A stretch of 64,000 nt of DNA from an uncultured Candidatus Saccharibacteria bacterium (GCA_964473025.1 CAYYMZ010000001.1:24163-88162); one strand, 5' to 3'; positions 1 through 23,843 are shown, counted from the stretch's first letter. The notes: generated from the sequence alone by a model not told the origin. Numbers and translations are program-made.

Positions 1-28
1 AAAATATCAAATATGACTTTTAACTGAT

Positions 29-1288
29 ATGGAACCAATAATCAAAATCGAGGGTTTAGGGAAAAAATATACGATAGGAACAAGAGAGCCCTATTACGCT
101 CTTCGTGATCACCTCGCTGGTTTTTTCAATTTTAGAAAACCAAAAAAGAAGAAAGAAGAGTTTTGGGCTCTTAAAAATATTAATCTTGAAATCAAGCGAG
201 GCGAAGCGATCGGCATTATCGGGCGAAATGGTGCGGGGAAAAGTACGTTGTTGAAGATTCTCTCGCAAATCACCCCTCCGACCGAAGGCAAGATCATCAT
301 GGAAGGAAGGGTAGCTTCTCTTTTAGAGGTCGGTACCGGTTTCAATCCGGAGCTGACAGGGCGGGAAAATATTTATTTAAACGGCGCGATTTTGGGTATG
401 TCGAGGTCCGAAATCCGGAAAAAATTTAATGAGATTGTCGCTTTCTCCGAAATTGAAAAATTTCTTGATACACCAGTCAAACGCTACTCGAGCGGAATGT
501 ATGTTCGGCTCGCCTTCGCGGTCGCGGCACACTTGGAGCCAGAAATTTTATTGGTTGATGAAGTTTTAGCTGTTGGTGACGCACAGTTTCAAAAAAAATG
601 CCTTGGCAAAATGAGCGAGGTAGGCAAACACGGCAGGACAGTGGTTTTTGTTTCTCACAATATGGCGGCCATATCTAATCTTTGTTCGCGTTGCATCTAT
701 TTGGAGTCGGGTCAGGTTAGATATATCGGCGAAACAAAAAAAGCAATCGAGAGATATATTAGTCAAGCAGATGATGCTTTGGGTATTAAAAAATGGAACT
801 TGAAAGATATGCCTAAATCAGAAAGCGTTCGCCTGGAATCAGTCAGAATCGTCTCCGGTGGCAAGATGACGAGAAGTGTTTATATCAACAAGGAAGTCCA
901 GGTAGAAATCTCATATAACTGTCTTAAACAAGACAGCATTCTACATCCTGTTATTCATCTACGCGATGAGCTTGGGTCTCTGGTTTTTGCTTCAGCAGAT
1001 TTCCCTTCGGCGAATTTGGGTGACAATTATTGGTATGGCAAAAAAAGGCCAGTTGGTGTTTACAAATCGACCTGCATCTTGCCAGCAAATTTTTTGAACG
1101 ACAACACATATCACTTGGATATCGGAATCGCTGATGAAAAACATGCATGGAAAATCAACGAGCTTGATGTTTTGAGCTTCACGGTCGAGGAAACGGGAGA
1201 AATGAAAAAAGAATATATGGGTGAATGGATAGGGGCGATCAGACCGAAGCTTCTCTGGGAAACAGAGCTTTTGAGAAAGGAAAAATAA
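29..1288 (+). CDS. wzt: ABC transporter ATP-binding protein for polysaccharide/O-antigen export (Wzt/TagH type) with extra C-terminal domain
   Basis: Walker A GRNGAGKST, ABC signature LSGGM, Walker B ILLVDE; 419 aa with ~170 aa C-terminal extension as in Wzt; first gene of glycan locus. Confidence 0.8.
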   Translation: MEPIIKIEGLGKKYTIGTREPYYALRDHLAGFFNFRKPKKKKEEFWALKNINLEIKRGEAIGIIGRNGAGKSTLLKILSQITPPTEGKIIMEGRVASLLEVGTGFNPELTGRENIYLNGAILGMSRSEIRKKFNEIVAFSEIEKFLDTPVKRYSSGMYVRLAFAVAAHLEPEILLVDEVLAVGDAQFQKKCLGKMSEVGKHGRTVVFVSHNMAAISNLCSRCIYLESGQVRYIGETKKAIERYISQADDALGIKKWNLKDMPKSESVRLESVRIVSGGKMTRSVYINKEVQVEISYNCLKQDSILHPVIHLRDELGSLVFASADFPSANLGDNYWYGKKRPVGVYKSTCILPANFLNDNTYHLDIGIADEKHAWKINELDVLSFTVEETGEMKKEYMGEWIGAIRPKLLWETELLRKEK

Positions 1289-2985
1289 TGGGTTATGTTC
1301 GGGAAAAATACACAAGAGAATACTTCTTAAGGCAAGATGCTAATGGCAATAAAACAAATATTGGCGTTGAGGGCCTAGAGGAGTTTTTATCTGGAGATAT
1401 AAGAAAGGTGGATAAGAACCTTCTTGGAAAGATCGATTTTAAGGACAAAATTGTAGTTGACTTCGGTTTCGGACGCGGCGAGGCAATTAAGTATATATGT
1501 GAACAAGGAGCGAAGAAGGTTTACGGTGTTGATTTCTCGAAAGCGAGCATTGAAATTGCCTCGAGTATGTTAGAGCACTACGGCCACCGGGCCGACCTGG
1601 AATGTAGTGATGCTCTTGAGTATATGCAAAAGTTTGTTAAAAGTGACAAAACGGTTAAGTTTGACGTTGTTATAATGTTCGATTTTGTTGAGCATATTTC
1701 ACGAAGCGAACTCGGTCAACTGCTCTCGTATCTTAGGAAAACTATGAGCGAGAAGGGGTTGGTTGTTATTAACACTCCTATCTATAAATCTGATAATGAT
1801 GTAATCAAAGAAGGGCTCAAGGAGGAGGCGAGAGACGCAAGCGATGAAATGCCGCAAACAGAAGGTATGCACTGCAATCGATATACCAAAAAATCCTTAA
1901 TTAAATTCATGAAAAGCAATGGTTTTAATGCGATATCCCCTAAATTTTTCTCCCCAAGTTTTAAAAGTGGTTTTGCACTGACAAATGCTCAAAAATGGTC
2001 TAATGCAAAAAGAAATCTTTTCCCCGTACAGGGCCGGTATCGAAAAGATTCGTTCGAAAAAGCCTTAACTAGCGCACAAATTAGAAAAATGGGTTGGAAA
2101 AAAGTCTTTTCCCCAGCTATATTACCCATTATTTTACCTCCAGCATTTTTTATTTTAAAAAACCGACTATTTCCCTCAAAAAAGGTCCCAATCTATAGCT
2201 ACAATCCAATTTGGCATAAAATAAAGGGCGGCGCCTTAAGGGGAAAATGGTTTTATATTGACACTCACGACAATAGTTGGCAGCAAGAAATTATCGAGGG
2301 GACTTATGATAAATTCTTCTTTGATTTTCTGAAAAAATATAACCTTGAGGGTAAAACTATTTTCGATGTGGGAGCTTTTGTTGGCTCCCACAGTTTGGCC
2401 TTTGCTCAGATGGTTGGTAAAAACGGTAAAGTTTTTTCTTTTGAACCAAATGAATTTAATATTAGCCGGATGAAGAAAATCTTTAACAGGAATAAAGACT
2501 TAGGGAAAAGAATCAAAATTGTTAAAGTTGCTCTTTCAGACAAAAACGGTTCCACGGTCTTTAGCTTTAGTAATCAAATAGACAATGGTTTTAGCTCTGG
2601 CGGATTTGTTGAGGGCTCGGATACGCCGAGGGAAGAGGCAGAATATGAAAAAAGTCATTTTAAAAAGTGCTCCGTTAAAAGTGTTAAGCTTGACGATCTT
2701 GAGGCAAGGATGAAAATCAAGGATTCGCCCCTCATCATCAAAATTGATACTGAGGGGGCGGAGGGGAATATTCTCGAATCTGGGCAAAAATATTTAAAAA
2801 AACACAAGCCGATTATCTTGGTCGAAATCCATTCCCCGGAGAATATGATTCACACCGTTCAAGTTTTAAGCAAGCTTGGTTATGAGATTTCAATTTTAAA
2901 AAAAGAGATCGATGGGCGGGTTTTTCTGTCTGCCAACCCAGATATTAAAAATAAATCTTATGCAGAAATTTACCCAAAAAATTAA
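1288..2985 (+). CDS. two-domain methyltransferase: N-terminal class I SAM-dependent MTase + C-terminal FkbM-family methyltransferase
   Basis: ATG at 1288 overlaps wzt stop (TAATG); N-terminal VVDFGFGRGEA SAM-binding motif; C-terminal FDVGAFVGSHSL..IKIDTEGAE typical of FkbM family. ORF-track start 1225 lies inside wzt. Confidence 0.7.
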   Translation: MGYVREKYTREYFLRQDANGNKTNIGVEGLEEFLSGDIRKVDKNLLGKIDFKDKIVVDFGFGRGEAIKYICEQGAKKVYGVDFSKASIEIASSMLEHYGHRADLECSDALEYMQKFVKSDKTVKFDVVIMFDFVEHISRSELGQLLSYLRKTMSEKGLVVINTPIYKSDNDVIKEGLKEEARDASDEMPQTEGMHCNRYTKKSLIKFMKSNGFNAISPKFFSPSFKSGFALTNAQKWSNAKRNLFPVQGRYRKDSFEKALTSAQIRKMGWKKVFSPAILPIILPPAFFILKNRLFPSKKVPIYSYNPIWHKIKGGALRGKWFYIDTHDNSWQQEIIEGTYDKFFFDFLKKYNLEGKTIFDVGAFVGSHSLAFAQMVGKNGKVFSFEPNEFNISRMKKIFNRNKDLGKRIKIVKVALSDKNGSTVFSFSNQIDNGFSSGGFVEGSDTPREEAEYEKSHFKKCSVKSVKLDDLEARMKIKDSPLIIKIDTEGAEGNILESGQKYLKKHKPIILVEIHSPENMIHTVQVLSKLGYEISILKKEIDGRVFLSANPDIKNKSYAEIYPKN

Positions 2986-3025
2986 ACAGACAGTTTTGCA
3001 AAAATTCTTTACGCTTTTTTGTCTG

Positions 3026-3973
3026 ATGCTTGAAAAGCCTTTGTTTTATGACTGGGCCTCAATTTTTTTCTCGAGAGTTGCCGTAAATGGAACGGGTAGC
3101 AATAAATGCTTAAAAAGAGGTTTTTTGCCAGTTCCGGTTCATTTTTATTCTCCGATTCCCGATCTTAAGGACTTAGAGAAACGGAAGGTTTGGGACCAAA
3201 AAAGCAATCTTTCTGGGTTAGAGTTTGACATCAAAGAGCATCTCGCCTTTCTTCAGAGATTGGGTGAAAAATACGGCAAAGAATGTTCTTGGAAATTTGA
3301 GAAAACAGCCAAGGAAAGTGAATTTTACCTTGACAATAAAAGCTTTCTTTTTGGTGACGCCGCTTCCCTACACTCAATAATCAGAGAGTTTAAGCCAAGC
3401 CGGGTAATTGAAATCGGTTCCGGCAACTCATCCAAAATTATTTCCCAAGCCCTGAAGCTAAATAAAGAGGAGGGCGGAAAGAGTGGCGAATACACGATTA
3501 TTGATCCTTATTCTCTTAGGCATATTAGAAAAGGAGTGATAAATTACACGCATTTGATTAAGGAAAGGGTTGAATTAGTCGACCCTAAGATTTTTGAGCA
3601 ACTTGGGAAAAATGACATACTTTTTATCGACTCCAGCCATTCTGTAAAGATAGGGTCGGACGTCAATTTCCTTTTCTTAGAAGTGTTGGGGCGACTCAAA
3701 AGTGGAGTCTTTATACATTGCCACGATATCGACTTGCCTTATGAGTATCCAAAGTGTTATGCCACCGAAGAAAAATTCCACCAATTTTGGACCGAGCGCT
3801 ATCTCCTACAGGCCTTTCTTGCTTTTAACAATCAATTCGAAATTGTTTTGCCAATGGCCTACCTAATGCGTAATTATATTTCACGTTTCAAAAAACTTTT
3901 TCCATCTTATGATCCAAAAAAGCCGGGAGGGCGGCTTAGTATTAGTGTGAGTTTTTGGATGAGAAGAAAATAA
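3026..3973 (+). CDS. SAM-dependent methyltransferase, TylF/Methyltransf_24-like (putative sugar O-methyltransferase)
   Basis: VIEIGSGNSS glycine loop and FIDSSHS motif (D..H.Y-like) typical of Methyltransf_24; start uncertain (alternatives 2960, 2912). Confidence 0.55.
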   Translation: MLEKPLFYDWASIFFSRVAVNGTGSNKCLKRGFLPVPVHFYSPIPDLKDLEKRKVWDQKSNLSGLEFDIKEHLAFLQRLGEKYGKECSWKFEKTAKESEFYLDNKSFLFGDAASLHSIIREFKPSRVIEIGSGNSSKIISQALKLNKEEGGKSGEYTIIDPYSLRHIRKGVINYTHLIKERVELVDPKIFEQLGKNDILFIDSSHSVKIGSDVNFLFLEVLGRLKSGVFIHCHDIDLPYEYPKCYATEEKFHQFWTERYLLQAFLAFNNQFEIVLPMAYLMRNYISRFKKLFPSYDPKKPGGRLSISVSFWMRRK

Positions 3974-3985
3974 AATCGGTGTTTA

Positions 3986-5167
3986 ATGAAAAATAAGATT
4001 GCGATCCTTTCTCACGTCCTGCCTCCCTCGAGCAATGGACAAGCGATCATGCTTTACCGCCTGCTTGAGAAAACCCCGAAACAAGACTACATCTTGATTT
4101 TAAGCAGGAAATATCTCGGCAGAGAAAAAGAGCCAAGAAGTTCAAAAAAACTTGCCGGGAAATATTATACTCTCGAGATACCAAAAGAAACCGAACTAAC
4201 GATCCGCGAGTATATGAAAAAATCATTATACCGGCGTGCGGTCAGCTTTATCAGCACGGTCAGAACTCAAACAAAGCAATTGAAATCAATCCTAATTTCC
4301 GAAAAATGTGAAACGTTAGTTGCCTGCACCGGCGGATTTTTTGATCTTTTCGCCGCCTATCTCGCGGTCAGAAAATTAAAAATCCGCTTTGTGATTTATT
4401 CTTTTGATGACTACGTTTATCAGTGGACGGGAATTTTAAGGGTAATGGTGCGAATGATTGCAAAAAGAGCTTTTAAAAGAGCAGATCAACTGATTGCACC
4501 GAATGAATTTTTGCAAAAAGCATATTTCTCGCGCTACGGTAAAAAAAGCGTTATCGTCCGTAACCCATATATTCCATTTCGCATATCGAAGCAAAAAAAG
4601 GTCTTTAACAAAAAAGAAATCAACATTGTCTACACCGGTTCGGTTTATTTCGCTCATTTTGATGCGTTTAGAAATTTGATCAAAGCAATAGAGCTTTTAG
4701 ATATGCCTGCTAAGCTCCATATTTTTACGGGTCAGCCCAAACAAAAGCTTGAGAAGGAAGGCATTTCCGGTCGGCAGGTTATTTTCCATAAAAACGTTGA
4801 TCAAAGCGAAACCTGCAATGTCCAAAAACAAGCAGATATTCTTTTTTTACCCCTTGCTTTTGATTCTCCGATCGGTGAAACAATTAAAACCTCGGCTCCG
4901 GGTAAGATGGGCGAATATCTATCTTCCGGCCGGCCCATTCTAGTTCATGCCCCCAAGAATTCATACATTAGTTGGTATTTTAAGAAGAATAAGTGCGGCG
5001 TGGTCGCTGATACACCCGATCCAAAGCAATTAGCCGAAGCAATTGCCGAAATGATTAAAAATAAAAGTAAATCAAAAGAATTTATTAGGAATGCAATAAG
5101 ACGAGCCAAGTCGGATTTCTCACTTGAAAAAGCGCGCAAAAACTTTAGCAGTGTAATTTCCGAATGA
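3986..5167 (+). CDS. glycosyltransferase, GT4-like
   Basis: 393 aa; C-terminal GT-B nucleotide-binding fold residues (EXXXG/KxGxxxxSxYxxE-like), stop overlaps next start (ATGATG). Confidence 0.65.
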   Translation: MKNKIAILSHVLPPSSNGQAIMLYRLLEKTPKQDYILILSRKYLGREKEPRSSKKLAGKYYTLEIPKETELTIREYMKKSLYRRAVSFISTVRTQTKQLKSILISEKCETLVACTGGFFDLFAAYLAVRKLKIRFVIYSFDDYVYQWTGILRVMVRMIAKRAFKRADQLIAPNEFLQKAYFSRYGKKSVIVRNPYIPFRISKQKKVFNKKEINIVYTGSVYFAHFDAFRNLIKAIELLDMPAKLHIFTGQPKQKLEKEGISGRQVIFHKNVDQSETCNVQKQADILFLPLAFDSPIGETIKTSAPGKMGEYLSSGRPILVHAPKNSYISWYFKKNKCGVVADTPDPKQLAEAIAEMIKNKSKSKEFIRNAIRRAKSDFSLEKARKNFSSVISE

Positions 5168-6390
5168 TGAAAACATTACTCCTTTCCCCTTCCTTGCCAA
5201 ACAAAAAATCCTCGGGCGGTATCATGATTTGTGATCTCTTGAGCTTGGTCAAAGAAGACGAGATTTTTGCTTTCGTAGCCAGAGACCCGCATTTAAAAAA
5301 CGTTTTAATTGAAAAATATCCTGCTCTTTCTGACATAGAAACAATCAAAAGACCAATAGAGTCGCCTTATAGTTTCCCGAGATGGTTTTTTGATAAAGCT
5401 CTCTCGCGGCAAATCGAAAAAATAAAAGATTTTTATATCAAATGGCGAGTAATTAGAAGAGCAGTTAGGTATGGCAAAAGAAACGGGGTTGAATGTGTTT
5501 GGGCGGTCCTTCAGGGTAAAACAATGATTATTAGTGCCCTTAAAGTTGCAAAAGCACTAGGCGTGCCCTTGATTTCTCAAATTTGGGATGAGCCCAAGTG
5601 GATTCTATCTGACACGGGAATTGACCAAAAAACCAAAGTAAAAATACTTAAGATTTTTGGGGAGACGGTTAAAGCAAGCAAGGTCTGTGCTACTGCGTCT
5701 GAGCCAATGGCTAAGAAATATCAAGACAAATACCGCACTAAAACAGTTGTCTTTATGGGAAGCTTGGATGCAAAAATGGCCCTCTCTGCGGCAAAGCGCA
5801 TAAATTATGGCAATAACTTAAAAATTGGTTTTGCCGGGCAGTTGTACGCAACCTCCGAGTGGAAAGCATTAATCTTGGCACTTGACGAAGTTGACTGGAA
5901 AATTCGCGGTAGGCGTGTTACTATTCACCTCTTGGGCGGGTTTGGTTCATCTGAAATGCAAAATCTGCCATCAAACCGGGTTGTAAATTTGGGCTACAAA
6001 TCACAACAGCAAACAATAAAAATTTTATCAAAAATGGATATCCTTTATTGCCCATATTGGTTCGACGAGGAGCACAGAGGTATTGCCAAAACAAGTTTTC
6101 CCAGCAAGCTAACAACCTATTTTGCAGCGGGTAGGCCGGTATTTTTCCATGGGCCGGAGTATTCCTCACCAGCGAAGTTTATCAGGGAAAACAAATGTGG
6201 TGTATTATGCCACTCGCTGAGAAGCAAAGATATTGTGAAACAATTTGAAGAGCTTTTGAGTGATCGCAAAAGATATAGTCAGATTACGCGAGCAGGGAGA
6301 GTGGCCTTTGATAAATATCTGACTTATGGTAATCTCTCAAATCAGCTAACAGTTTTTCTAAATATAGCGAAAGAGAGTATTTCAAGATGA
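5164..6390 (+). CDS. glycosyltransferase, GT4/GT1-like
   Basis: 408 aa; GT-B C-terminal domain similar to neighbour; translationally coupled (4-nt overlaps both sides). Confidence 0.6.
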   Translation: MMKTLLLSPSLPNKKSSGGIMICDLLSLVKEDEIFAFVARDPHLKNVLIEKYPALSDIETIKRPIESPYSFPRWFFDKALSRQIEKIKDFYIKWRVIRRAVRYGKRNGVECVWAVLQGKTMIISALKVAKALGVPLISQIWDEPKWILSDTGIDQKTKVKILKIFGETVKASKVCATASEPMAKKYQDKYRTKTVVFMGSLDAKMALSAAKRINYGNNLKIGFAGQLYATSEWKALILALDEVDWKIRGRRVTIHLLGGFGSSEMQNLPSNRVVNLGYKSQQQTIKILSKMDILYCPYWFDEEHRGIAKTSFPSKLTTYFAAGRPVFFHGPEYSSPAKFIRENKCGVLCHSLRSKDIVKQFEELLSDRKRYSQITRAGRVAFDKYLTYGNLSNQLTVFLNIAKESISR

Positions 6391-8675: not shown

Positions 8676-8736
8676 TCAGCTGGGTTGACTCTAAAGTATT
8701 ATCTGATAGTTTATAAAAAAATAGCAGAGGTGAAAT

Positions 8737-14657: not shown

Positions 14658-15294
14658 ATGAATATCAGGTTTGTGCTGTTTGACATCGGTAACGTACTGG
14701 CGCTGGCGGATCGCCGGCGGACGGTGGAAGCGCTCATATTGCGCCACGGCGTCCCACGGGAGTTGGCCGAGGGTTACTTCGACCGCGCCGACTATGCCAC
14801 CCTAGGCCGGGGGGCAAATCAAGTGGGAAGAGTACTGTCAGCGTCTTCGTGAGCAGTGGCTTGTCGAGATCCCCGATGAAGATATTCACAGGGCACACGC
14901 TGGTCACATCTACGCTCTCGATGAGGAAGTAGCCGAATTGATTGCGAGAATTGAGGCCAAGCCTAATGCGCTAAAGGTGGCTGGTGTAACTAACACCAGT
15001 GGGGTCGAATTTGTGCGCTACTGTAATCTCAACGTAACCCTTGTTCTCGATCCGGTCTGGTGCTCATACCAACAAGGAGCGCTCAAAGGCGGTGAGGGGA
15101 TTTTCGGGCGGATTGTTGGCGCATGGATTCCGGATAACCTCGGCGTCGGGGTGGGGCCAGATCAGGTTCTACTCATCGACGATAGTCCCGAGAACTGTGT
15201 CGCGGCAGCCGCGGCAGGGCTGACAACGTTCCAGTACACTCCCTACCAACCCTGGCTTCTGGAGGCCTATCTCCGGGAGCAGGAAATTATATAG
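14658..15294 (+). pseudogene. HAD-superfamily hydrolase interrupted by a frameshift in a G6 homopolymer
   Basis: HAD motif I FVLFDIGNVL at N-terminus (ORF 14658-14852) and motif VLLIDDSPEN..AAAGL in ORF 14938-15294; deleting one G at 14809-14814 fuses the frames (..DYATLGRGQIKWEEYCQRL..). Confidence 0.7.
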
Positions 15295-15323
15295 TGAGTG
15301 TCAGCGTAAAGGAGATGATCACT

Positions 15324-16324: not shown

Positions 16325-17412
16325 AAGTCTTGACAATACTTGGAACCCGTCCCGAAATAATCCGACTTTGTTTAATTATTAAAAAATTAGATTCTCTTTG
16401 CGACCAGGTTTTGGTTCATACCGGACAGAACTACGACGTCAATTTAAATGAAATATTTTTGCGTCAGCTCGGCGTTCGCAAAATGGATTATCACTTTAAC
16501 GCAACTGGAACCCCCGCCGAGCAGATAGGCAAAATTTTAGTTGAGCTTGAAAAAATCATTAAGAAAGAAAAACCAGACCGGTTCCTGGTCTTAGGCGACA
16601 CTAACAGTTCGATTGGCGCTATTATGGCCAAACGGCTTCATATTCCCGTCTATCACATGGAGGCGGGCAATCGATGTTTCGATGACCGCGTTCCCGAGGA
16701 GGTTAATCGCCGGATCATTGACCATTCAAGTGATATTTTAATGCCTTATACCGAGCGTAGCCGCCAGAATCTTTTGCGCGAAGGCATTGCGGGGCAAAGA
16801 ATTTATGTAACAGGCAACCCGATTAAGGAAGTGCTTGATTATTTTGCTGAAGATATCGATGCAAGCCGAGCGATGGAAAAATTCAAAGTCGAAAAAGGTA
16901 AATTCTTTTTAGCAACGCTACATCGCGAGGAAAATGTCGATGTTGAAGAACGGCTTGCAAGATTTGTGCAGGCCTTCAACAAATTGACCGAAAAATACAA
17001 AATGCCACTTATCTGGAGTGTCCACCCGCGCACCAAAAAAAGAATTAAAGCAAATAAAAAACTTAAATTAAATAAGGCCGTTTGCGCAATCGAACCGTTG
17101 GGACTCTTTGACTTCGTGCATCTTGAGAAAAATGCCTTCTGTTTACTCTCCGATAGTGGCACCGTACAGGAAGAGGGAGCGATTTTTAACGTTCCAAACG
17201 TTACGCTTCGAGATGTGACGGAAAGGCCCGAAACCATCGAAGCAGGAAGTAATTTCTTAAGCGGTTGTGAGATAGAATCGATCCTGCTTGGTGTAAAAGT
17301 AGCGGTTCAGAAGGCGGACAGTTGGGACCCGCCCAAAGAGTATCTAGTTTCTGATGTTTCCTCTAAAATTGCCAAAATAGTTCTAAGCTATAAAAAAACA
17401 GAGCAATCTTAA
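16321..17412 (+). CDS. wecB: UDP-N-acetylglucosamine 2-epimerase (non-hydrolysing)
   Basis: MKVLTILGTRPEIIRL..HMEAGNRCFDDRVPEEVNRRIIDHSSD..LHREEN characteristic WecB/MnaA motifs. Confidence 0.85.
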   Translation: MKVLTILGTRPEIIRLCLIIKKLDSLCDQVLVHTGQNYDVNLNEIFLRQLGVRKMDYHFNATGTPAEQIGKILVELEKIIKKEKPDRFLVLGDTNSSIGAIMAKRLHIPVYHMEAGNRCFDDRVPEEVNRRIIDHSSDILMPYTERSRQNLLREGIAGQRIYVTGNPIKEVLDYFAEDIDASRAMEKFKVEKGKFFLATLHREENVDVEERLARFVQAFNKLTEKYKMPLIWSVHPRTKKRIKANKKLKLNKAVCAIEPLGLFDFVHLEKNAFCLLSDSGTVQEEGAIFNVPNVTLRDVTERPETIEAGSNFLSGCEIESILLGVKVAVQKADSWDPPKEYLVSDVSSKIAKIVLSYKKTEQS

Positions 17413-17454: not shown

Positions 17455-19428
17455 TTATTGAACGTAAGGGACTGCTTTCGGTTCGCCATTAGTATCGTTT
17501 ACTATTTTAAATAGTCGATAGCTTTTAGCTTTACTGATGTCCTCGAATAATCCTCCGTATGTATTCCAAAAATCTTCGCCTACCCTGTCTACAAGAAAAT
17601 AATCGTATTGGCCTGTCGCAAAAAGTTTTCTTAGCTGATCTGAGCTTGATCCAGACACCCAATAATCTTCTTTGCCTGGTTCTTCGATTCTTTTTAATTG
17701 CTCAGAACTGAATTTTCTCGGGAATATTTCGTAAGCTAAAATTGGCGACTCGACATCTTTGAACTTAGTATAGATAAATGTTCTTGACTTTTCCTCGGTG
17801 CGGCCATTTAAAAGATTAATCCAAGGCGTCAAACCATTTTTTAGTTGATTCGTCAGTTCTATATTTACGCTGGGGTAAGTATAGAAAACATTAATTGGAG
17901 GTGTTTCAAAAATAAAAAGCAATAGCAAAGCGCTACCCAAGATTGATAACGGCTTGGCATTTTCCTTTCTAAATAATCTGTCGCCGATCATAATCACAAA
18001 CCCGATGAGGGCGACGAAATATCCTATCGTGTAGGTGTTGATATATCTTACTATCGAAGTTAGCTCAAGAGCTTCCCTTAGGGGGTAAAAATAAGTGTAT
18101 GCGGCCATCAGAAGAACAAGGTAAGAGGCAAAGCCGGCCGTTAAGCTGATAAACAGAAGCAGGAAAATGCCCTTGTCTTTCTTCGTAAGGCATTTATAGA
18201 TTAAAAATGAAAAAATGAATAAAATTAATAACCACACAACCAAGGGAAATCTTTTCGTATTAGTCAGTTTTAATATCAGTTTCATTACGGGATTATTGTC
18301 TGTCAATGACTCAATCTTGGCTGAATCTTTTTGGAATGCCGAATTGATTCTTTGGGTTGCAAGGGCTTTTACAAATTTGGTTGCAATCAGTTTTTTATCC
18401 CGCCCAATTGGCTGGGTTTGTGGCTGGGTGCCTTGCGGCTCGGAAATGTTTTCAATCCTAAACTTCGAAGCAACATTAAATTGATTCAAGTAAACATACC
18501 AACTTTTATAAGCTAAAAAAGGCGTTGCAATAATTGCCAAAATGATCAGTACGTTAAAGACCGAAATTTTCAGGTTTTTTCTAGAATAAATACACAAATC
18601 AATCAAGTTTACTGCCGCAAGAATGTAGGCAAAAATCATTCCATTCTCTTTGATGGTGGAGAGCAAAAAGAGAATTGGCAAGATTAGCAATTTTTGTTTT
18701 ATCGATCTTAGAGTAAAAAGAGAGACCAAAATTGAAATCCCAAAGATAATTGCGATTACGTGGTCAACCAAAATGGACAAGAAACCAAACTGGCTGAATA
18801 AAAAGTAGCTTAAAAAGGAGAAAAGAACCAAGATGAGCAAAAGGTTTCCTTTGTAGTTAATTTTTTTCAAGGCCATAACATATGACAGGGCGGAAAAACC
18901 CAAAATACCTTGGGCGAAATAAAGCGCCTGCTCGCTAAATTTACCGAATTGGAGATAGAAATACTGGTTCAGCGAGGCAATTGGTGAATAATAAACACCA
19001 TAGTCAATAACTCCGCCGTATATACCGGACAGGCCGTGGTTATAAAAAATTAGCTTGGCATATTTTGCCCAGTAGAACTCATCGCTGTTATGCAGGGTTG
19101 CCCCTTGAACATAGGCAAACCAAACAATGCCAAGAGCAAGAAAAAACCAAAATTGGCTTGGTATCGATTTTAGGAAAATAAATATTTTTGCTGGCGAAAA
19201 CCGGTTTTTTATCAGGACGTATAGGGTGCAATAAATAAGTGAGGCAAGGCCGGCAAAAAAGATTAATTTATTTACCCAAAAGAGAAGACCGATGAAAGCG
19301 GATAAATATAATAATAAAATAATACTGGTACAAACAAAGAGAGGGAAAACCGAAATCAGCTTGGGATATTTTTTAGATAATACCCCAACAAACCCGATAA
19401 TTGACAAAAAACTCAAGAAATAGATCAA
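17455..19428 (-). CDS. large polytopic membrane protein (>=12 TM) with C-terminal extracytoplasmic domain; possible polysaccharide polymerase/glycosyltransferase
   Basis: 657 aa, long hydrophobic N-terminal two-thirds; located inside glycan locus; no diagnostic motif. Confidence 0.45.
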   Translation of the reverse strand: MIYFLSFLSIIGFVGVLSKKYPKLISVFPLFVCTSIILLLYLSAFIGLLFWVNKLIFFAGLASLIYCTLYVLIKNRFSPAKIFIFLKSIPSQFWFFLALGIVWFAYVQGATLHNSDEFYWAKYAKLIFYNHGLSGIYGGVIDYGVYYSPIASLNQYFYLQFGKFSEQALYFAQGILGFSALSYVMALKKINYKGNLLLILVLFSFLSYFLFSQFGFLSILVDHVIAIIFGISILVSLFTLRSIKQKLLILPILFLLSTIKENGMIFAYILAAVNLIDLCIYSRKNLKISVFNVLIILAIIATPFLAYKSWYVYLNQFNVASKFRIENISEPQGTQPQTQPIGRDKKLIATKFVKALATQRINSAFQKDSAKIESLTDNNPVMKLILKLTNTKRFPLVVWLLILFIFSFLIYKCLTKKDKGIFLLLFISLTAGFASYLVLLMAAYTYFYPLREALELTSIVRYINTYTIGYFVALIGFVIMIGDRLFRKENAKPLSILGSALLLLFIFETPPINVFYTYPSVNIELTNQLKNGLTPWINLLNGRTEEKSRTFIYTKFKDVESPILAYEIFPRKFSSEQLKRIEEPGKEDYWVSGSSSDQLRKLFATGQYDYFLVDRVGEDFWNTYGGLFEDISKAKSYRLFKIVNDTNGEPKAVPYVQ

Positions 19429-20606
19429 TTTGCGGACCTAGTTTTTATACATTTTTGATAAATAATTACTATTTTGTCTGCAACCTTCCCGATATCAAAC
19501 TGTTTTAAGGCCACAGCGCAATTTTTTGATAAATTTGCTCTTTCATTATAAACCCATTTTATTTTTTGGGCAGTTTCTGCCGGGTTTTGCGGATCGCTGA
19601 CTACAGCTGCGCATTGGTATTTCATCAGCTCTTCTGAAATGCCAACATCTTTAGATAAACATACTGGCACATTGTGGCTTAATGCTTCAAGGGCGGCCAA
19701 AGAGAAGGATTCGTAGTATGAAAAAAGGACAAAAACGTCACTACTTGCGAAAAGTTCCTCCTTTGTCTTCCCCTCGACAAATCCAGTAAAAATAACATTA
19801 TCGCCTAATTGCAGGTCAGCAATTTTTCGGTCAAGTTTCGCTTTTTCTCCCTCATCCGGTCCCGCGATAATTAATTTATAAGAAGGATCGTTCCTGACGA
19901 GAAGGGCGAAAGCGTCTATTAGTCGGTCCAACCCTTTTATGAAACCCAATCGGCCAAGAAACAACAAAACCTTATCGGTTTCTTTAAGGCCAAATTTTTG
20001 GCGATTACTCCTTTCCCTTTTTTGCGTGGTGCTCGAAATAGGATTTAAAACAACCTCGACTTTATCTTTTAAATCTGGCATAAAGCTTAATAGCCGCTTT
20101 TTTTCCTGCGACGAGACAACCAGAATCTTTGACGCGTCTCGAAGCAACCGCTTGCCGTACAAAATATTGAAGATTTTTTTGATCAAGGTCTTCTTAAAAA
20201 GCGGAATTGGCGCAGGCATTTCATGCAGATGCAGAATATAGGGAATTTTGTATTTTCGGCAGTATTTGGCGCAAACAATATTTTGATAAGTAAAAAAAGA
20301 ATGTAAATGTACTAAATCGTAATCTTTGACGTGCGACCTAAAATATTTTTTGAAGCCCCTGGGTAAAAATAAATTGGCTTTTTTTGCCAAAACATTGCTG
20401 ACATTCCTAAACCTTAAAACTCTGACCAAGTCAATCACTTCACAAAGCTTACCTATTCGTTTAGTATGGTCGTATGCATCGGTGGTCAGAACCGTTACCT
20501 CGTGTCCACGTTTGGCTAATTCTCGAGATATGTCAAAGCACACCCGAACCGGACCACCGTAACCCCAGGCCGGCGCGAAAAATGGAATGATTTGCGCGAT
20601 TTTCAT
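19425..20606 (-). CDS. glycosyltransferase family 4
   Basis: MKIAQIIPFFAPAWGYGGPVRV N-terminal GT4 motif and C-terminal E..FSLAALEAL..VPV motif. Confidence 0.8.
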   Translation of the reverse strand: MKIAQIIPFFAPAWGYGGPVRVCFDISRELAKRGHEVTVLTTDAYDHTKRIGKLCEVIDLVRVLRFRNVSNVLAKKANLFLPRGFKKYFRSHVKDYDLVHLHSFFTYQNIVCAKYCRKYKIPYILHLHEMPAPIPLFKKTLIKKIFNILYGKRLLRDASKILVVSSQEKKRLLSFMPDLKDKVEVVLNPISSTTQKRERSNRQKFGLKETDKVLLFLGRLGFIKGLDRLIDAFALLVRNDPSYKLIIAGPDEGEKAKLDRKIADLQLGDNVIFTGFVEGKTKEELFASSDVFVLFSYYESFSLAALEALSHNVPVCLSKDVGISEELMKYQCAAVVSDPQNPAETAQKIKWVYNERANLSKNCAVALKQFDIGKVADKIVIIYQKCIKTRSAN

Positions 20607-20645
20607 ATAGTCAATATATCATAAAGCATAAGGTTTAAAAGCAAA

Positions 20646-21842
20646 ATGGACATCCTGGTTATTCACGAAACGGAATACATCGAAAAAGTGGTTTTTGAAT
20701 ACCAGATTATTCCCGAACTTTGGGCGAGTTGGGGGCATAATGTCTATGCGATTGATTTTCCAACGAAGTTGGATAGAAAGAGCATATTTGATCTCGGAAC
20801 TTTCAAAACTAAAATTATCAAAAATGTCAAAAAAGCGGATAAACAAAGGGGAATCACGCTGATTAGACCGGGCTTTATTAAATTGCCGGTTCTAAGCCGG
20901 ATGACGGCATTTATTACTCATTTCTTTGCCATCAGACGGGCGATTATCGACTATAAAATCGATGTTATCTTTTTATATTCCGTCCCGACTAACGGCTTAC
21001 AGACGGTCTTTTGGGCTAAAAAGTTCAAAATTCCGGTTCACTTCCGCCTTTTAGATGTGCTGCACCGTCTTGTGCCATTTAAAATCCTGACTTGGCCAAC
21101 TTATTGCATGGAAAAGATGGTTTATAAGAGGGTTAATGGGCTAACGGCAATCACGCCGCGTCTTAGAGATTATGCCGTTGAAATGGGCGCACGAAGAGAT
21201 ACTGCAACATATCTTCCTTCGGGTTCAGATCGGGACTTGTTTTATCCTCAAACTAAAGATGTTAAATTGCTCAAAAAATATGGTTTAAAAAAAGACGACC
21301 TCGTGATTTTATTTGCCGGTACTCTTTATAATTTTTCGGGTCTTAATAAGGTTATCGAATATTTGGGGGATCATAAAAATAAATATCCTGCTTTAAAGTT
21401 TTTGATTTTAGGCCACGGCGAACAAGAAAAGAAATTAAGGAAATTAATTGCCACGAAAAATCTGCAAAAAGAAGTGATCCTAGCCGGTTTTATTGATTAT
21501 AAGATTTTGGCAAGATACATCAATCTGGCGGATATCTGCATTAACCCGTTTGAAATAAACGAAATCACTAACATCATCTTCCCGGGAAAGATATACCAGT
21601 ATCTTGCTTGCGGCAAACCGGTTATTGCCTCCCGCCTTGCGGGTTTGGTCGATCTTTTTCCCGAGAGAAAACAGAAGAATATTTTTTATTATAATGCGGA
21701 TAAAATAGGCGAATTTTTTAAACTGATTGGCACCGTCAAGAAAGTGAAAATTAAAGATCCAAATCCATCATTGCAGGAGATTGCTAAGATTTTAGAGCGG
21801 CATCTAGAGGCATTGGTTTCGGCAAAAAATACAAAGGATTAG
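20646..21842 (+). CDS. glycosyltransferase family 4
   Basis: GT-B C-terminal motif FPGKIYQYLACGKPVIAS; divergent from preceding GT4 with 39-bp spacer. Confidence 0.75.
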   Translation: MDILVIHETEYIEKVVFEYQIIPELWASWGHNVYAIDFPTKLDRKSIFDLGTFKTKIIKNVKKADKQRGITLIRPGFIKLPVLSRMTAFITHFFAIRRAIIDYKIDVIFLYSVPTNGLQTVFWAKKFKIPVHFRLLDVLHRLVPFKILTWPTYCMEKMVYKRVNGLTAITPRLRDYAVEMGARRDTATYLPSGSDRDLFYPQTKDVKLLKKYGLKKDDLVILFAGTLYNFSGLNKVIEYLGDHKNKYPALKFLILGHGEQEKKLRKLIATKNLQKEVILAGFIDYKILARYINLADICINPFEINEITNIIFPGKIYQYLACGKPVIASRLAGLVDLFPERKQKNIFYYNADKIGEFFKLIGTVKKVKIKDPNPSLQEIAKILERHLEALVSAKNTKD

Positions 21843-22204
21843 CGTTTTTTTGGATTACTTTTTTTTTTCTTCCGTTGGAGCTCGTGCAAGGTGAAATTTC
21901 TTGAAAGCAGATCAAGATTTTTCTCGATTCGATTGGCCTTGATATAAATTCTGTAGCAGATAAAAAGAACAAAGACCAAGCCCATGCCGAAAATCGTGCC
22001 GAGACCTGTGCGGCTGCCCCCAACCACTGCAATCAGTTTGTCGATTAAATTAGGATAATAAGCAAAAACAATAATTGCCGTCCAAATAATCAGCCAAAAG
22101 GCCGTCATTTCAATCGACTCTTTTTTGTTTCTGTAATCCGTAATCGATCTGGCAATGACCAGAACTGACAGTAGGATAGCGAAAATTTTTGCAAATATTA
22201 ACAT
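21839..22204 (-). CDS. DUF2304-like small membrane protein (usual partner of GtrB-like GT2)
   Basis: 121 aa, 3-4 TM segments, basic C-terminus; immediately downstream of GT2 with 2-nt spacer, the conserved GT2+DUF2304 arrangement. Confidence 0.5.
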   Translation of the reverse strand: MLIFAKIFAILLSVLVIARSITDYRNKKESIEMTAFWLIIWTAIIVFAYYPNLIDKLIAVVGGSRTGLGTIFGMGLVFVLFICYRIYIKANRIEKNLDLLSRNFTLHELQRKKKKSNPKKR

Positions 22205-22206
22205 TT

Positions 22207-22890
22207 TTAACCGGCTATTCTTTTGAAAATTAATTTGATGACGATATTCACCCCATTGAAAACAGATTGGCCTTTCCGCCGTGAATAGCGGGTATATCTG
22301 ACTTTAATCGGAATTTCACCTATTTTCAACCTTTTGCGAGTTGCCTCCAGAATTATTTCCGAGCAAAATTCATATCCGGCGGTGTCCAAATCCATTTTTT
22401 TTAAAGCACGAGCAGAAAATGCCTTAAAGCCCGATTGCGAATCGCTTGTCCACTTGCCTGATAATAGATAGGTTATGATGTTTAGTCCCCAGTTGCCGAC
22501 TTTTTTGTGTTGCGGCATTCCCTCGGGGTTGACCAATCTGGTACCAATCACCAGATCTAACCGCTTTCCCAAAACCGGTTTTGTGATTTTGGCAATGTCC
22601 GAAGGATCGTGCTGACCGTCACCGTCAAAAGTAACGGCGATGTCAGCATCTATTCTTCTGGCGGCTTCAAGCCCCGTGGCAGTAGCACATCCAACACCGA
22701 GATTGGTGTGGTGGCTGACTAAAATTGCCTGAGTATGTTCTATTTGCCCGGCCGAGTTATCCGTCGAACCATCATCAACGGCCAGAATAGTAATTTTACT
22801 TATCCCGGATAGCTTTGAGGGCAAGGATTTAATGACACTTTTAATAACTGGTCCCTCATTGTAAACAGGAATGACAATCGCTAAATGCAT
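22207..22890 (-). CDS. glycosyltransferase family 2, polyprenyl-phosphate sugar transferase (GtrB/DPM1-like)
   Basis: IVIPVYNE..AVDDGSTDNS..DxD-type GT-A motifs; 227 aa. Confidence 0.8.
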   Translation of the reverse strand: MHLAIVIPVYNEGPVIKSVIKSLPSKLSGISKITILAVDDGSTDNSAGQIEHTQAILVSHHTNLGVGCATATGLEAARRIDADIAVTFDGDGQHDPSDIAKITKPVLGKRLDLVIGTRLVNPEGMPQHKKVGNWGLNIITYLLSGKWTSDSQSGFKAFSARALKKMDLDTAGYEFCSEIILEATRKRLKIGEIPIKVRYTRYSRRKGQSVFNGVNIVIKLIFKRIAG

Positions 22891-22892
22891 TT

Positions 22893-23810
22893 TTATTTTT
22901 CTTTAAACCACTCGATCGTTTTTTGCAACCCATCCTTAAGCGTAACCTTTGGCTCCCAGCCCAAACTTTCTTTGATTTTGCTCGCGTCAAGGGAGCTGTG
23001 CTCTTGCTCCTTGGCCTTGTAATCAATGTGCACAATTTCGCTTTTCGAACCCGATAATTCTTGGAGTATTTTTACGATTTCATTGACCGATGTCTCGCAT
23101 CCGGTCCCAATGTTAAATGTATCGCAGACATCAGAATCCATTGCCATTAAATTTGCGGCCACAACGTCGGTGACGTAAACGAAATCTCTTGTGTGGGTGC
23201 CATCCCCGAAAACATCGAGTCGTTCGTCTCGTATCATACAGTCGGTAAAAATGGCGACGATTCCAGCTTCTCCTTTGGGGTTCTGGCGTGGGCCAAAGAC
23301 GTTTGCATAGCGCAAGATAACACTTTGGAGACCCTCTCCTGAAAAATACTTAATAAATTTTTCGGCAAACATTTTGTCGATTCCATACGGGGAAACAGGA
23401 TCGGCTTCGGCCATCTCCGTTGTCGGCCGCTCTGCTTTATCTCCATAAATTGCCCCTCCCGTTGAGGAGAAGATAAACTTTTTGACTTTGTATTTTTTTG
23501 CTGCCATCAAAAGGTTTACCGTCCCGATAACATTAGTTTCGATGTCAAACGCGGGGTCTTTTGCTGAAACAATCACGCTTGCCTGCGCCGCAAGGTGAAA
23601 AATAACTTCCGGTTTGGTTTCACTAAATATTTTACCTAACTTGTTCGCGTTGGTAATATCCTCCTCAAAAAACTTTGCTTGTTCGTTAACATTGTCGCGG
23701 TTTCCGGTTGACAGATTATCAACAACGCTAACCTCATGATTTTTTTCAATCAAAGCATCAACCAAATTTGAACCAATAAAGCCCGCACCACCAGAAACTA
23801 AAATTTTCAT
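22893..23810 (-). CDS. NAD-dependent epimerase/dehydratase (UDP-glucose 4-epimerase-like)
   Basis: MKILVSGGAGFIGSNLV Rossmann motif; SD aaaggga upstream of ATG at 23810 (track start 23837 less likely). Confidence 0.75.
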   Translation of the reverse strand: MKILVSGGAGFIGSNLVDALIEKNHEVSVVDNLSTGNRDNVNEQAKFFEEDITNANKLGKIFSETKPEVIFHLAAQASVIVSAKDPAFDIETNVIGTVNLLMAAKKYKVKKFIFSSTGGAIYGDKAERPTTEMAEADPVSPYGIDKMFAEKFIKYFSGEGLQSVILRYANVFGPRQNPKGEAGIVAIFTDCMIRDERLDVFGDGTHTRDFVYVTDVVAANLMAMDSDVCDTFNIGTGCETSVNEIVKILQELSGSKSEIVHIDYKAKEQEHSSLDASKIKESLGWEPKVTLKDGLQKTIEWFKEK

Positions 23811-23843
23811 AAACATCCCTTTCTTTTGCAACCTCATTTAAAC

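Follow-up and report, generated by a model that had tools for sequence, protein, structure and literature searches.

The window analyzed here, a stretch of 64,000 nucleotides, begins with 22 called genes (positions 1-23837) that agree with those called independently on an ENA contig of 100% identity. An earlier note had described these 22 genes as a surface-glycan locus. The count stands, and the surface-glycan nature of the region is supported by HMM family assignments (Pfam and NCBIfam, judged against model cut-offs), operon coupling, and synteny; overall, the observation is confirmed in part. The locus runs past the window edge, with at least 10 kb more upstream of position 1, and the first housekeeping genes appear only beyond 23.9 kb. 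On the best reading, it makes up most of a Wzm/Wzt-dependent cluster for a cell-surface glycan, with a total length of at least 34 kb. GroEL finds its best named matches in Ca. Berkelbacteria (70-81% identity), which confirms the CPR lineage suspected earlier; it places the host as a Berkelbacteria-like CPR bacterium. A monoderm envelope is generally assumed for CPR bacteria.

The first gene encodes Wzt (29..1288, plus strand), an ABC ATPase, as earlier claimed (Pfam ABC_tran, 84.9 bits), with a C-terminal Wzt_C-like, carbohydrate-binding domain at residues ~264-389. Among solved structures it comes closest, by its NBD, to Aquifex Wzt, an O-antigen transporter (PDB 6amx, E 4.8e-68). The Wzt_C match scores 23.7 bits in the window protein, under the 30.4 cut-off; it falls at the same place in 5/5 full-length Wzt orthologues, and in L014 it exceeds the cut-off (31.4 bits). 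The search upstream of position 1 that the earlier note proposed reveals the Wzm permease (ABC2_membrane, 272 aa) directly upstream of Wzt, in L001. A MetK-PfkB-AdoHcyase operon adjoins Wzm in divergent orientation; the same layout recurs in a diverged relative, L036, whose dual methyltransferase (MTase) is 55-58% identical. By gene coordinates, overlapping start and stop codons link the genes from Wzt through that of a 762-aa protein.

Methyltransferases are unusually numerous in the locus. HMMs recognize six MTase domains in five proteins, drawn from four different families; the four independent domains claimed earlier were real but undercounted. MTase genes account for 5/22, against an assumed background rate of 2-3% (binomial P about 6e-5 to 4e-4). 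First in order is a 565-aa dual MTase (1288..2985, plus strand), whose start overlaps the Wzt stop codon (TGATG). It joins a class I SAM-dependent domain (residues 66-237) to an FkbM domain (residues 381-554; TIGR01444, 98.3 bits against a cut-off of 37.7), and has a weak RfbT match. Beside Wzm/Wzt, this fusion turns up in 13 of 16 loci spanning at least eight phyla, the taxa being Patescibacteria, Chloroflexota, Elusimicrobia, Acidobacteria, Aminicenantes, Desulfuromonadota, and the Alpha-, Beta-, and Gammaproteobacteria, often with the same GT4 glycosyltransferase, RmlD-like SDR, and WecB-like gene. Proteobacterial homologues (P0046 and P0037) have an extra C-terminal long coiled coil and basic amphipathic tail, a combination that is a hallmark of chain terminators (PMC11231755; PMC3482155); the CPR dual MTase, unlike these homologues, lacks the coiled-coil ruler. 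Its position and family relations fit those of a non-reducing-end terminator, which would be read by the Wzt C-terminal domain.

The next gene (2960..3973, plus strand) encodes a 337-aa Methyltransf_24-family MTase (Pfam 45.5 bits, cut-off 26.3). It had been labeled TylF-like, a name that no longer fits: the protein does not match the TylF model even at E<=1. Homologues adjoin the dual MTase in L025, L026, L031, and L032, and in P0068 a class I MTase is fused to Methyltransf_24. The 762-aa protein (6387..8675, plus strand) is trifunctional, with a GT4 domain (residues 1-390), a Walker-A P-loop segment (residues ~397-460), and a C-terminal class I MTase domain (residues ~628-718; 37.9 bits). 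Weak AAA and shikimate-kinase matches (E 3.6e-4 to 0.07) suggest that the P-loop segment may be kinase-like. The GT4 part is kept in L015, L016, L020-L022, L024, and L031, and the P-loop and MTase extension occurs only in the close relative L032. On the minus strand, a 462-aa protein (11984..13372) pairs a conserved N-domain (residues 1-255), for which our searches detected no relative, with a class I MTase domain (residues ~270-462) for which three methods place WbdD among the nearest solved structures. Upstream of this gene lies a 95-aa small membrane or secreted ORF (13350..13637, minus strand), called in L006 and L013, with a 96-aa counterpart in L032.

The HMM-supported glycosyltransferase domains number six (five GT4 and one GT2), rather than the seven or more claimed earlier. 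Besides that of the 762-aa protein, the GT4 domains belong to GT4a (3986..5167, plus strand; Glycos_transf_1, 42.4 bits), GT4b (5164..6390, plus strand; Glyco_trans_1_4, 35.3 bits), which has ATGA overlaps with both flanking genes, GT4c (19425..20606, minus strand; Glycos_transf_1, 126.5 bits), and GT4d (20646..21842, plus strand; Glycos_transf_1, 62.2 bits). GT4a is 56% identical to its L032 counterpart; the sugar-nucleotide genes are 95-100% identical. Three sugar-nucleotide SDRs, as the earlier note had it, emerge from the HMMs. SDR1 (8737..9687, plus strand; Pfam Epimerase, 108.9 bits) is an NAD-dependent epimerase/reductase whose sequence lacks the TDE dehydratase motif, with 99% identity in L032 and 89% in L031. 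SDR2 (15446..16324, plus strand; RmlD_sub_bind, 64.6 bits) is an RmlD-like 4-ketoreductase with a TDCVYSG motif. SDR3 (22893..23810, minus strand; Epimerase, 212.2 bits) is a GalE/WbpP-like UDP-hexose(NAc) 4-epimerase that scores 213.1 bits on galE TIGR01179, under its 262.3 cut-off. The earlier WxcM-like ketoisomerase is a small cupin of the RmlC/FdtA (WxcM-C) type (9689..10153, plus strand), an epimerase or ketoisomerase that passes both the FdtA/WxcM (30.6 bits) and RmlC-type dTDP_sugar_isom (45.7 bits) models. WecB also holds up: a non-hydrolysing UDP-HexNAc 2-epimerase of this type (16321..17412, plus strand) scores 304.7 bits on Epimerase_2 and 290.8 on TIGR00236 (cut-off 210), and occurs together with SDR2 in 11 related loci (L016-L019, L021, L023, L024, L028, L031, L032, and L034). 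Among the genes scanned, we found no WecA/WbaP-type phosphoglycosyl transferase that could act as initiator; nor did we find a ligase, an LCP transferase, or a 4,6-dehydratase bearing the TDE motif.

Between these genes lies a GC-rich stretch (~13720-15300; 57.5% GC against 40%) that takes up 3/22 gene calls and was missed by the earlier note. Its first gene (13720..14634, plus strand) has a GC3 of 0.68, against 0.43-0.47 in neighboring genes; the 276-304-aa product has no functional candidate, and Pfam, NCBIfam, Rfam, and plasmid searches returned no match. Orthologues (34-85% identity) are kept at this position in L031, L033, L034, and L035, and all of them exceed their flanks in GC content. 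The second gene (14659..15294, plus strand), recognized by three-frame translation, encodes a HAD-like hydrolase with a frameshift at a G-run near 14805-14815, reflecting either a pseudogene or a sequencing error. Intact orthologues occur in L033 and L034, and the L033 copy passes Pfam Hydrolase (29.6 bits against 26.4). As a pair, the two genes are conserved within the locus.

Several products are membrane proteins with possible roles on the outer face. By fold, the 615-aa protein (10140..11987, minus strand) is a membrane-anchored alkaline-phosphatase/sulfatase-fold transferase of the EptA/MCR-1/LtaS class. The earlier description, an LtaS-like sulfatase-fold enzyme, is upheld for the fold by Foldseek; the Pfam Sulfatase score (19.2 bits) stays under the cut-off of 25, and PDB sequences give no match. 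With an AF2 model of pLDDT 90, Foldseek aligned MCR-1 (9nww, E 1.5e-7) over 569 columns and EptA (5fgn) over 593; MCR-1, EptC, and EptA hold ranks 1, 2, and 9, and LtaS (4uoo) rank 17. The fold is thus at least as close to the first three as to LtaS, which leaves the proposed phosphoglycerol as one possibility; the donor cannot be read from sequence. In this family, T282, H436, D497, and E498 are invariant and the CxPxR sulfatase motif is absent. Nearly every named homologue belongs to the Patescibacteria or Saccharimonadia, and PF00884 is present in ~40% of the homologues listed. The 657-aa polytopic protein (17455..19428, minus strand), with ~12 hydrophobic helices by hydropathy, is a candidate outer-face (GT-C-like) transferase; it has no Pfam or NCBIfam match at E<=1, and its gene is kept beside GT4c in L031 (42% identity). 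Further along the minus strand are a DUF2304 small membrane protein (21839..22204; PF10066, 60.4 bits, cut-off 25.5), a family to which we take mycobacterial Rv3632 to belong, and its partner, a PpgS/AglJ-like GT2 polyprenyl-phosphate sugar synthase (22207..22890; Glycos_transf_2, 69.6 bits). The best NCBIfam match of this GT2 is PpgS, at 149.3 bits, under the equivalog cut-off of 370.

The families and folds assigned above, together with the coupled operon, the synteny, and the lineage, lead us to infer an ABC-transporter-dependent glycan in which a methyl, or methyl-phosphate, cap gates export and outer-face decoration follows; on balance, we consider this account probable. The SDRs, the cupin, and the WecB-type 2-epimerase would supply modified nucleotide sugars of 6-deoxyhexose and 2-epimerised HexNAc types, and the five cytoplasmic GT4 enzymes would build the polymer on a polyprenol carrier. 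SAM-dependent methyltransferases would modify it, and at least the Wzt-coupled dual MTase would cap the non-reducing end and stop elongation. Since both the 762-aa and the 462-aa protein may pair a kinase-like part with an MTase, the cap could be methyl-phosphate. The capped end would be recognized by the Wzt C-terminal domain and the finished chain exported by Wzm/Wzt, with SAM regenerated by the neighboring MetK-kinase-AdoHcy hydrolase operon. Two outer-face routes are proposed: a polyprenyl-phosphate-sugar pathway (GalE-like epimerase, PpgS-like GT2, DUF2304 protein, and possibly the 657-aa protein) and an EptA/MCR-1/LtaS-class phospho-transferase, which would decorate the chain or its acceptor. 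An export-gating cap is the best reading because the transport-elongation-termination (TET) layout, the terminator-like homologues of the dual MTase, and the Wzt_C-type domain converge on it.

Instead, several independent systems could be juxtaposed here: the Wzm/Wzt polymer operon (29-10153), a lipid-linked-sugar pathway that decorates proteins or some other polymer (17455-23837), and, acting on a lipid or other envelope component and not on this glycan, an EptA-like enzyme. We regard this as possible, if unlikely. The strand switches at 10.1, 13.7, 17.4, 20.6, and 21.8 kb and the mosaic identity to L032 (55-100% across the locus) are consistent with it, as are a PpgS module and a 615-aa family that are each widespread without the rest of the locus and a cross-phylum core comprising only Wzm, Wzt, the dual MTase, a GT4, the RmlD-like SDR, and WecB. 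Yet two relatives (L031/L036 and L032) retain the order 615-aa, 462-aa, SDR2, WecB, 657-aa, GT4c, GT4d alongside the Wzt operon, and housekeeping genes begin only past 23.9 kb. The region has two divergently oriented halves, and each might have its own acceptor.

The earlier note envisaged a heavily O-methylated polysaccharide. On such a reading, comparable to methylated deoxy-sugar glycans, all MTases would act on internal sugars or nucleotide-sugar precursors and methylation would have no part in termination or export gating. This seems doubtful: translational coupling ties the dual MTase to Wzt, in the position of the terminator of TET operons, and this enzyme has homologues bearing terminator-type coiled coils and accompanies a CBM-type Wzt domain that in characterised systems reads a terminal modification; Wzt carries a CBM in all characterised terminated systems (PMC11231755). 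As an end cap, it would need few methyl groups per chain, so heavy O-methylation becomes a possibility only. The missing coiled coil in the CPR protein, the true TylF-type sugar O-MTase gene in L031, and a SAM-cycle operon that adjoins the locus in two relatives, suggesting high methyl demand, all favor internal methylation. The two readings are compatible. Six MTase domains from four families in one locus exceed any known cap's need, and internal methylation is likely as well.

We give little credence to a teichoic-acid-like phosphoglycerol polymer made by an LtaS-type synthase and exported in TagGH fashion. The supposed monoderm envelope of CPR bacteria would suit it, and the best NCBIfam matches of the ATPase are TagH-type models (212 and 185 bits); however, these scores lie far under the cut-offs of 538 and 320, the ATPase carries a Wzt_C-type domain, LtaS is outranked among the fold matches, and the locus has no TagD/TagF/TagB or CDP-glycerol genes. 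That the MTase-like ORFs serve RNA or protein methylation and lie here by chance is scarcely credible: their weak matches to FtsJ, PrmA, CmoB, and TlyA models, all far under cut-offs, reflect a shared Rossmann fold, and the reading is contradicted by GT fusions (the 762-aa protein and homologues P0055 and P0073), by conserved Wzm/Wzt synteny, and by an MTase gene density far over background.

The probable capped-export system adds one more case to a well-known pathway and brings no new mechanism. The locus had been called unusual and uncharacterised if CPR; with the Wzm-Wzt-dual MTase core in many phyla, the kind of system is ordinary, and only its presence in a CPR genome, in this elaborate form, is uncharacterised.

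In Escherichia coli O9a and Klebsiella pneumoniae O3, the WbdA polymerase, the WbdD kinase-methyltransferase terminator, and a Wzm/Wzt with CBM act together (PMC3482155, PMC11231755). The window shares ABC-transporter-dependent assembly, a C-terminal Wzt_C-type domain, MTases encoded with the transporter, a 462-aa MTase domain near that of WbdD, and proteobacterial dual MTase homologues with a WbdD-like coiled coil and membrane-binding tail. It differs in its CPR host without LPS, its candidate terminator (a class I and FkbM double MTase without coiled coil), the lack of a detected eukaryotic-type kinase domain, GT4s that are not WbdA orthologues, and several extra MTases. The ORF6 methyltransferase-kinase terminator of K. 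pneumoniae O7 shows that MTase/kinase pairs can be unrelated and still install a methyl-phosphate cap (PMC11231755); by domain pairing, the 762-aa (P-loop and MTase) and 462-aa (N-domain and MTase) proteins are candidates, with kinase activity a conjecture. The TET operon for Pseudomonas syringae CPA, wzm-wzt-O-methyltransferase-GT (PMC7820976), has transporter, methyltransferase, and GT in the same order, as well as fusions of GT to MTase in some members and mosaic, recombination-driven variation; here, by contrast, the MTase is dual-domain, the cluster is much larger, and outer-face modules and a linked SAM-cycle operon are present.

A monoderm precedent for a Wzm/Wzt-exported glycan with an O-methyl end cap is the slg cluster of Geobacillus stearothermophilus NRS 2004/3a, where WsaE (MTase-GT-GT) accompanies a 2-O-methyl cap (PMC2943079). 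It likewise places MTase and GT in a single polypeptide (compare the 762-aa protein) and overlaps the codons of wzm, wzt, and the next gene; here, we detected neither an rmlABCD set nor a WsaB-type oligosaccharyl transferase nor a WsaP initiator, and the acceptor may be S-layer protein, peptidoglycan, or lipid. In GalN decoration of mycobacterial and corynebacterial arabinogalactan, the Rv3634c epimerase, PpgS (Rv3631), Rv3632, and GT-C Rv3779 participate (PMC9671496). The adjacent GalE-like epimerase, PpgS-like GT2, and DUF2304 genes mirror Rv3634c/PpgS/Rv3632, with a large polytopic protein nearby; the differences are the PpgS score (149 against 370) and a 657-aa protein without detectable GT-C signature. 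Finally, the 615-aa protein resembles EptA, MCR-1, EptC, and LtaS in its N-terminal helical membrane domain and extracytoplasmic alkaline-phosphatase-fold domain, aligns with MCR-1 and EptA over its full length, and has an invariant Thr at a helix start with His and Asp/Glu instead of CxPxR; its second metal motif is D-E-G rather than D-H, and its family is largely confined to Patescibacteria.

Positions 1-23837 hold 22 called genes, and an ENA metagenome contig with 100% identity to the window yields identical calls. Family assignments from Pfam and NCBIfam bear out the general reading of the region, proposed in an earlier note, as a surface-glycan locus, along with most of the gene list offered there. 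The sugar-modifying enzymes stand as first described: WecB (16321-17412), three SDRs (8737-9687, 15446-16324, and 22893-23810), and a WxcM-like cupin (9689-10153) whose scores exceed the cut-offs of the RmlC-type and FdtA/WxcM models alike. A classical RmlABCD set does not account for the SDR and cupin genes: no equivalog cut-off is reached, and a TDE-motif dehydratase is absent. Glycosyltransferases had been counted as at least seven, and HMMs support six domains. The set includes four GT4 enzymes (3986-5167, 5164-6390, 19425-20606, and 20646-21842), a PpgS-like GT2 enzyme (22207-22890), and a 762-aa protein (6387-8675) in which a GT4 domain, a Walker-A P-loop segment, and a class I methyltransferase are fused.

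The locus encodes the machinery of ABC transporter-dependent assembly. The permease Wzm, which the earlier note had proposed to seek upstream of position 1, is present there on the identical contig. In L001-L004, about 100 bp separate Wzt from the end of this 272-aa gene, which matches ABC2_membrane at 85.6 bits. [quoted passage not shown] Five GT4 domains in the cluster provide the cytoplasmic glycosyltransferases of this assembly mode, and among the 31 proteins scanned there is no family match to a Wzx flippase or a Wzy/Wzy_C polymerase. An initiating WecA/WbaP-type transferase was not found among the genes of window positions 1-24.5 kb and the 10 kb upstream; as is common, such a gene may lie in another part of the genome.

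The C-terminal part of Wzt may bear on termination. In every characterised terminated system, a Wzt_C-type domain reads the terminal modification (PMC11231755). The window Wzt aligns to model positions 7-132 of 143 in Wzt_C at 23.7 bits, which is below the cut-off of 30.4. In five full-length orthologues the model aligns at that same place, with scores of 31.4, 27.2, 25.2, 20.2, and 15.2 bits, of which only the highest passes the cut-off.

Methyltransferases are abundant. FkbM and class I domains are as originally reported, while the count of four domains must be raised to six, distributed over five proteins. The protein once described as TylF-like (2960-3973) matches Methyltransf_24 and nothing else, with no match to TylF (PF05711) at E<=1; a separate TylF gene (60.8 bits) is found in the related locus L031. 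In the run of genes leading from Wzt to the 762-aa gene, each stop codon overlaps or almost meets the next start codon; the methyltransferases thus share a transcript, and probably their translation, with the transporter and glycosyltransferases.

Directly after Wzt lies a 565-aa dual methyltransferase (1288-2985) that joins a class I domain to an FkbM domain (TIGR01444, 98.3 bits against a cut-off of 37.7; PF05050, 63.6 against 22.7). The fusion is widespread. Of 16 genome loci retrieved with it, 13 have Wzm and/or Wzt no more than a few kb away, and these loci span Patescibacteria, Chloroflexota, Elusimicrobia, Acidobacteria, Aminicenantes, Geobacter, and Alpha-, Beta-, and Gammaproteobacteria. 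Subsets of these loci repeat the same GT4, RmlD-like SDR, WecB-like epimerase, Methyltransf_24, and 462-aa families. Two longer proteobacterial homologues (P0046 and P0037) carry, as read by eye, a long C-terminal coiled coil followed by a basic, amphipathic tail, as do the known terminators WbdD and WbbB/ORF6 (PMC3482155, PMC11231755). Coiled-coil tails are confined to these longer homologues and are missing from the dual methyltransferases of CPR bacteria (Patescibacteria): the window protein has no coiled-coil ruler and ends about 15 residues after its FkbM domain.

A supply of methyl donor is linked to the exporter. Beside Wzm and divergent from it is a MetK-PfkB-family kinase-AdoHcy hydrolase operon (L001 3925-7271), a SAM-regeneration set. 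The linkage of this operon to Wzm is kept in the relative L036 (1875-5107), where the dual methyltransferase is only 55-58% identical and a further small methyltransferase and a PRTase gene accompany it. L036 also has two genes that the window version lacks: upstream of Wzm, a LAGLIDADG-like ORF (5266-6114; a faint match), and, separating Wzm from Wzt, an inserted gene for a 23S_rRNA_IVP four-helix bundle (8353-8715). On the identical contig, the region upstream of position 1 further encodes a small methyltransferase, two proteins with an N-terminal hydrophobic segment, a sugar-phosphate nucleotidyltransferase, and a 522-aa polytopic protein.

The 462-aa protein (11984-13372 (-)) is one member of a very large family, which comprises 1824 clusters (50% identity) at E<1e-30 and 6243 representatives at E<=0.001. 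The protein has no Pfam match, and no Pfam or NCBIfam model describes the family. Its structural model (pLDDT 95.5) has a C-terminal class I methyltransferase domain and no long terminal helix, and Methyltransf_23 is weakly matched by 46 of 77 family members. Specific kinship of this methyltransferase to WbdD weakened with a deeper profile, and WbdD is therefore kept only as among the closest. The N-terminal domain (residues 1-255) contains the conserved motifs SFRDPxG, YPYEW, KDASxxN, and IDTLSF. K116-D117 is near-invariant (invariant in a 17-sequence subset of N-domains), N122 and D134 are invariant, and the order of strands and helices is kinase-like. When aligned to WaaY with hhalign, the conserved residues fall on its GDPHRGN...IDL motifs, yet the probability is 0.6%; WaaP and PDB sequence searches gave no match, and the domain has no significant relative.

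These features prompt a bolder proposal, which we consider rather unlikely as a whole. The 462-aa protein, with its D..N..D N-domain and WbdD-like methyltransferase, and/or the GT4-P-loop-methyltransferase fusion would be terminators of a new, ruler-free type, supplied by the linked SAM operon and placing a methyl-phosphate cap that the Wzt C-domain would read; the GC-rich gene pair of the locus would have been repeatedly imported from GC-rich, perhaps host, genomes. If true, import of the pair could offer a handle on CPR host range.

The GC-rich pair occupies positions 13720-15300, where GC content is 57.5% against 40% in the rest of the locus. This stretch, overlooked in the earlier note, includes three of the called genes. 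The pair consists of a gene for a 276-304-aa protein without family match and a gene for a HAD-like hydrolase. Four further low-GC loci (L031 7100-8200, L033 5900-7560, L034 5940-7590, and L035 5840-6950) have orthologues in the equivalent place, with 34-85% protein identity. The pair is 55-65% GC within CPR glycan loci of about 40% GC, every orthologue is richer in GC than its flanks, and GC3 is 0.68-0.73 compared with 0.37-0.47 in neighbouring genes. In the window, a frameshift at a G-run (14805-14815) splits the HAD-like gene, as either a pseudogene or a homopolymer sequencing error; L033 and L034 have unbroken copies of the gene, and that of L033 passes Pfam Hydrolase.

Two candidates for the source of this composition are repeated import from a GC-rich pool and selection on composition itself. 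A recent random insertion is partly rejected: both junctions recur in contigs from a second sample (L013 on the left, L007 on the right) and the four other loci agree, yet the closest relative, L032, lacks the pair. The same junctions and loci reject an assembly chimera. A structured RNA is discarded given no Rfam match at E<=1, ordinary synonymous divergence, and clear conservation at the protein level, and a plasmid origin found no tblastn match. Further patches of 0.55-0.60 GC occur in the window, which is 44% GC overall (43000-43600, 48400-50000, 50800-51600, 53800-55600, and 61400-62400); most of their ORFs have no Pfam match, and they are not paralogues of the gene in the GC-rich stretch. 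Near these patches is an XerC/D-type tyrosine recombinase (56377-57321 (-); Phage_integrase, 148.6 bits), which may be the chromosomal Xer or a mobile-element gene.

Decoration at the outer face of the membrane is suggested by 2 groups of genes. The first is a 615-aa enzyme (10140-11987 (-)) that had been called LtaS-like: its Sulfatase match is below threshold, and its fold is of the EptA/LtaS class. Its homologues come almost entirely from Patescibacteria or Saccharimonadia, and about 40% of them have PF00884. The AlphaFold (AF2) model, built from 68 sequences (pLDDT 90), predicts the architecture of the class, with a helical membrane domain (helices at 16-213) followed by an alkaline-phosphatase-fold alpha/beta domain (235-600). 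In Foldseek, it aligns over nearly its full length with MCR-1 (569 columns) and EptA (593 columns); EptC, many sulfatases, and LtaS also match. A PDB search with the single sequence found no match, and the profile retrieved only an arylsulfatase fragment (E 0.13). All 68 sequences share T282 (where helix 282-291 begins), H436, D497, and E498; D241 is conserved in at least 90%, and the C/S-x-P-x-R motif of sulfatases is absent. These conserved residues, together with the missing motif, would fit a phospho-form transferase with a Thr nucleophile better than a sulfatase. The group transferred may be phosphoethanolamine, phosphoglycerol, or another, and the phosphoglycerol decoration once proposed is not established by this fold.

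The second group is a trio: the GT2 enzyme, whose best NCBIfam match is PpgS (149 bits, below the equivalog cut-off of 370), is adjoined by DUF2304 (21839-22204; 60.4 bits) and a GalE-like SDR. Candidates for GT-C transferases are a 657-aa protein with 12 hydrophobic helices, which has no family at E<=1, and the upstream 522-aa protein, with its weak DUF6541 match; neither matches a GT-C family.

The locus varies as a mosaic among relatives. Against L032, protein identity is 94-100% for SDR1, the cupin, SDR2, WecB, and Wzt, whereas it is only 55-60% for the first two GT4 enzymes (3986-5167 and 5164-6390) and the 615-aa enzyme. L031 instead carries two GT2 genes, its TylF methyltransferase, and a second sulfatase-fold paralogue. 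Judged from these comparisons, the pattern resembles serotype variation of O-antigens and capsules and suggests serotype-like replacement of glycosyltransferases. Such variation between close relatives is as expected under phage or host selection.

Housekeeping genes, from AspRS onward, start after 23.9 kb. The downstream context is ordinary: a UPF0182 membrane protein (36120-38987 (-); 992 bits), a P-type cation ATPase (39753-42437 (-)), LeuRS, Trp/TyrRS, GroEL, YchF, and four tRNA genes. The suspicion of a CPR lineage is supported by GroEL, since its best named matches are to Candidatus Berkelbacteria (81, 81, 74, and 70% identity) and other Patescibacteria.

CPR bacteria are mostly uncultured episymbionts, and host attachment must run via the cell surface. 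A 2026 review of the phylum nowhere mentions envelope glycans. The locus provides a concrete and largely interpretable blueprint for such a glycan, which covers export, a probable methyl cap, SAM supply from linked genes, and decoration at the outer face. Furthermore, it flags 2 targets for biochemistry, the very large two-domain methyltransferase family of the 462-aa protein and the Patescibacteria-centred EptA/LtaS-like family of the 615-aa enzyme.

In the proposed mechanism, the SDRs, cupin, and 2-epimerase would tailor nucleotide sugars, and the GT4 enzymes would polymerise them on a polyprenol carrier at the inner face. SAM-dependent methylation would follow, including a terminal cap placed by the Wzt-coupled dual methyltransferase; a methyl-phosphate cap is possible, given two kinase-like/methyltransferase pairings. 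The Wzt C-domain would recognise the cap, export would follow, and the chain may then be decorated at the outer face via the epimerase/PpgS-like GT2/DUF2304 route and by the EptA/LtaS-class enzyme. Family and fold assignments, operon structure, and synteny are direct results; we infer the cap and its recognition, which sugars are used, what the 657-aa protein does, and which acceptor finally receives the chain. Several observations weigh against this mechanism: the surplus of methyltransferases, the lack of an initiator, ligase, or TDE-motif dehydratase near the cluster, and a CPR terminator candidate without a ruler. Since the methyltransferases exceed the needs of a cap, internal methylation is likely as well; the specific claim of a heavily O-methylated polysaccharide is not established.

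The pathway itself is conventional. The “transport, elongation, termination” operon of the Pseudomonas syringae common polysaccharide antigen has the same wzm-wzt-methyltransferase-glycosyltransferase layout (PMC7820976). The coiled-coil architecture of WbdD and WbbB/ORF6 is matched by the proteobacterial dual-methyltransferase homologues and not by the CPR versions (PMC3482155, PMC11231755). A monoderm precedent for a terminal methyl cap is Geobacillus WsaE, a methyltransferase fused to glycosyltransferases that caps an S-layer glycan, exported by Wzm/Wzt, with a 2-O-methyl group (PMC2943079). The epimerase/PpgS-like GT2/DUF2304 route mirrors the GalN system of mycobacterial and corynebacterial arabinogalactan, where polyprenyl-phosphate-sugar decoration of the PpgS/Rv3632/Rv3779 type has been described (PMC9671496). 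The locus is a new member of the well-known ABC transporter-dependent glycan pathway with a probable terminal modification, now in a CPR lineage.
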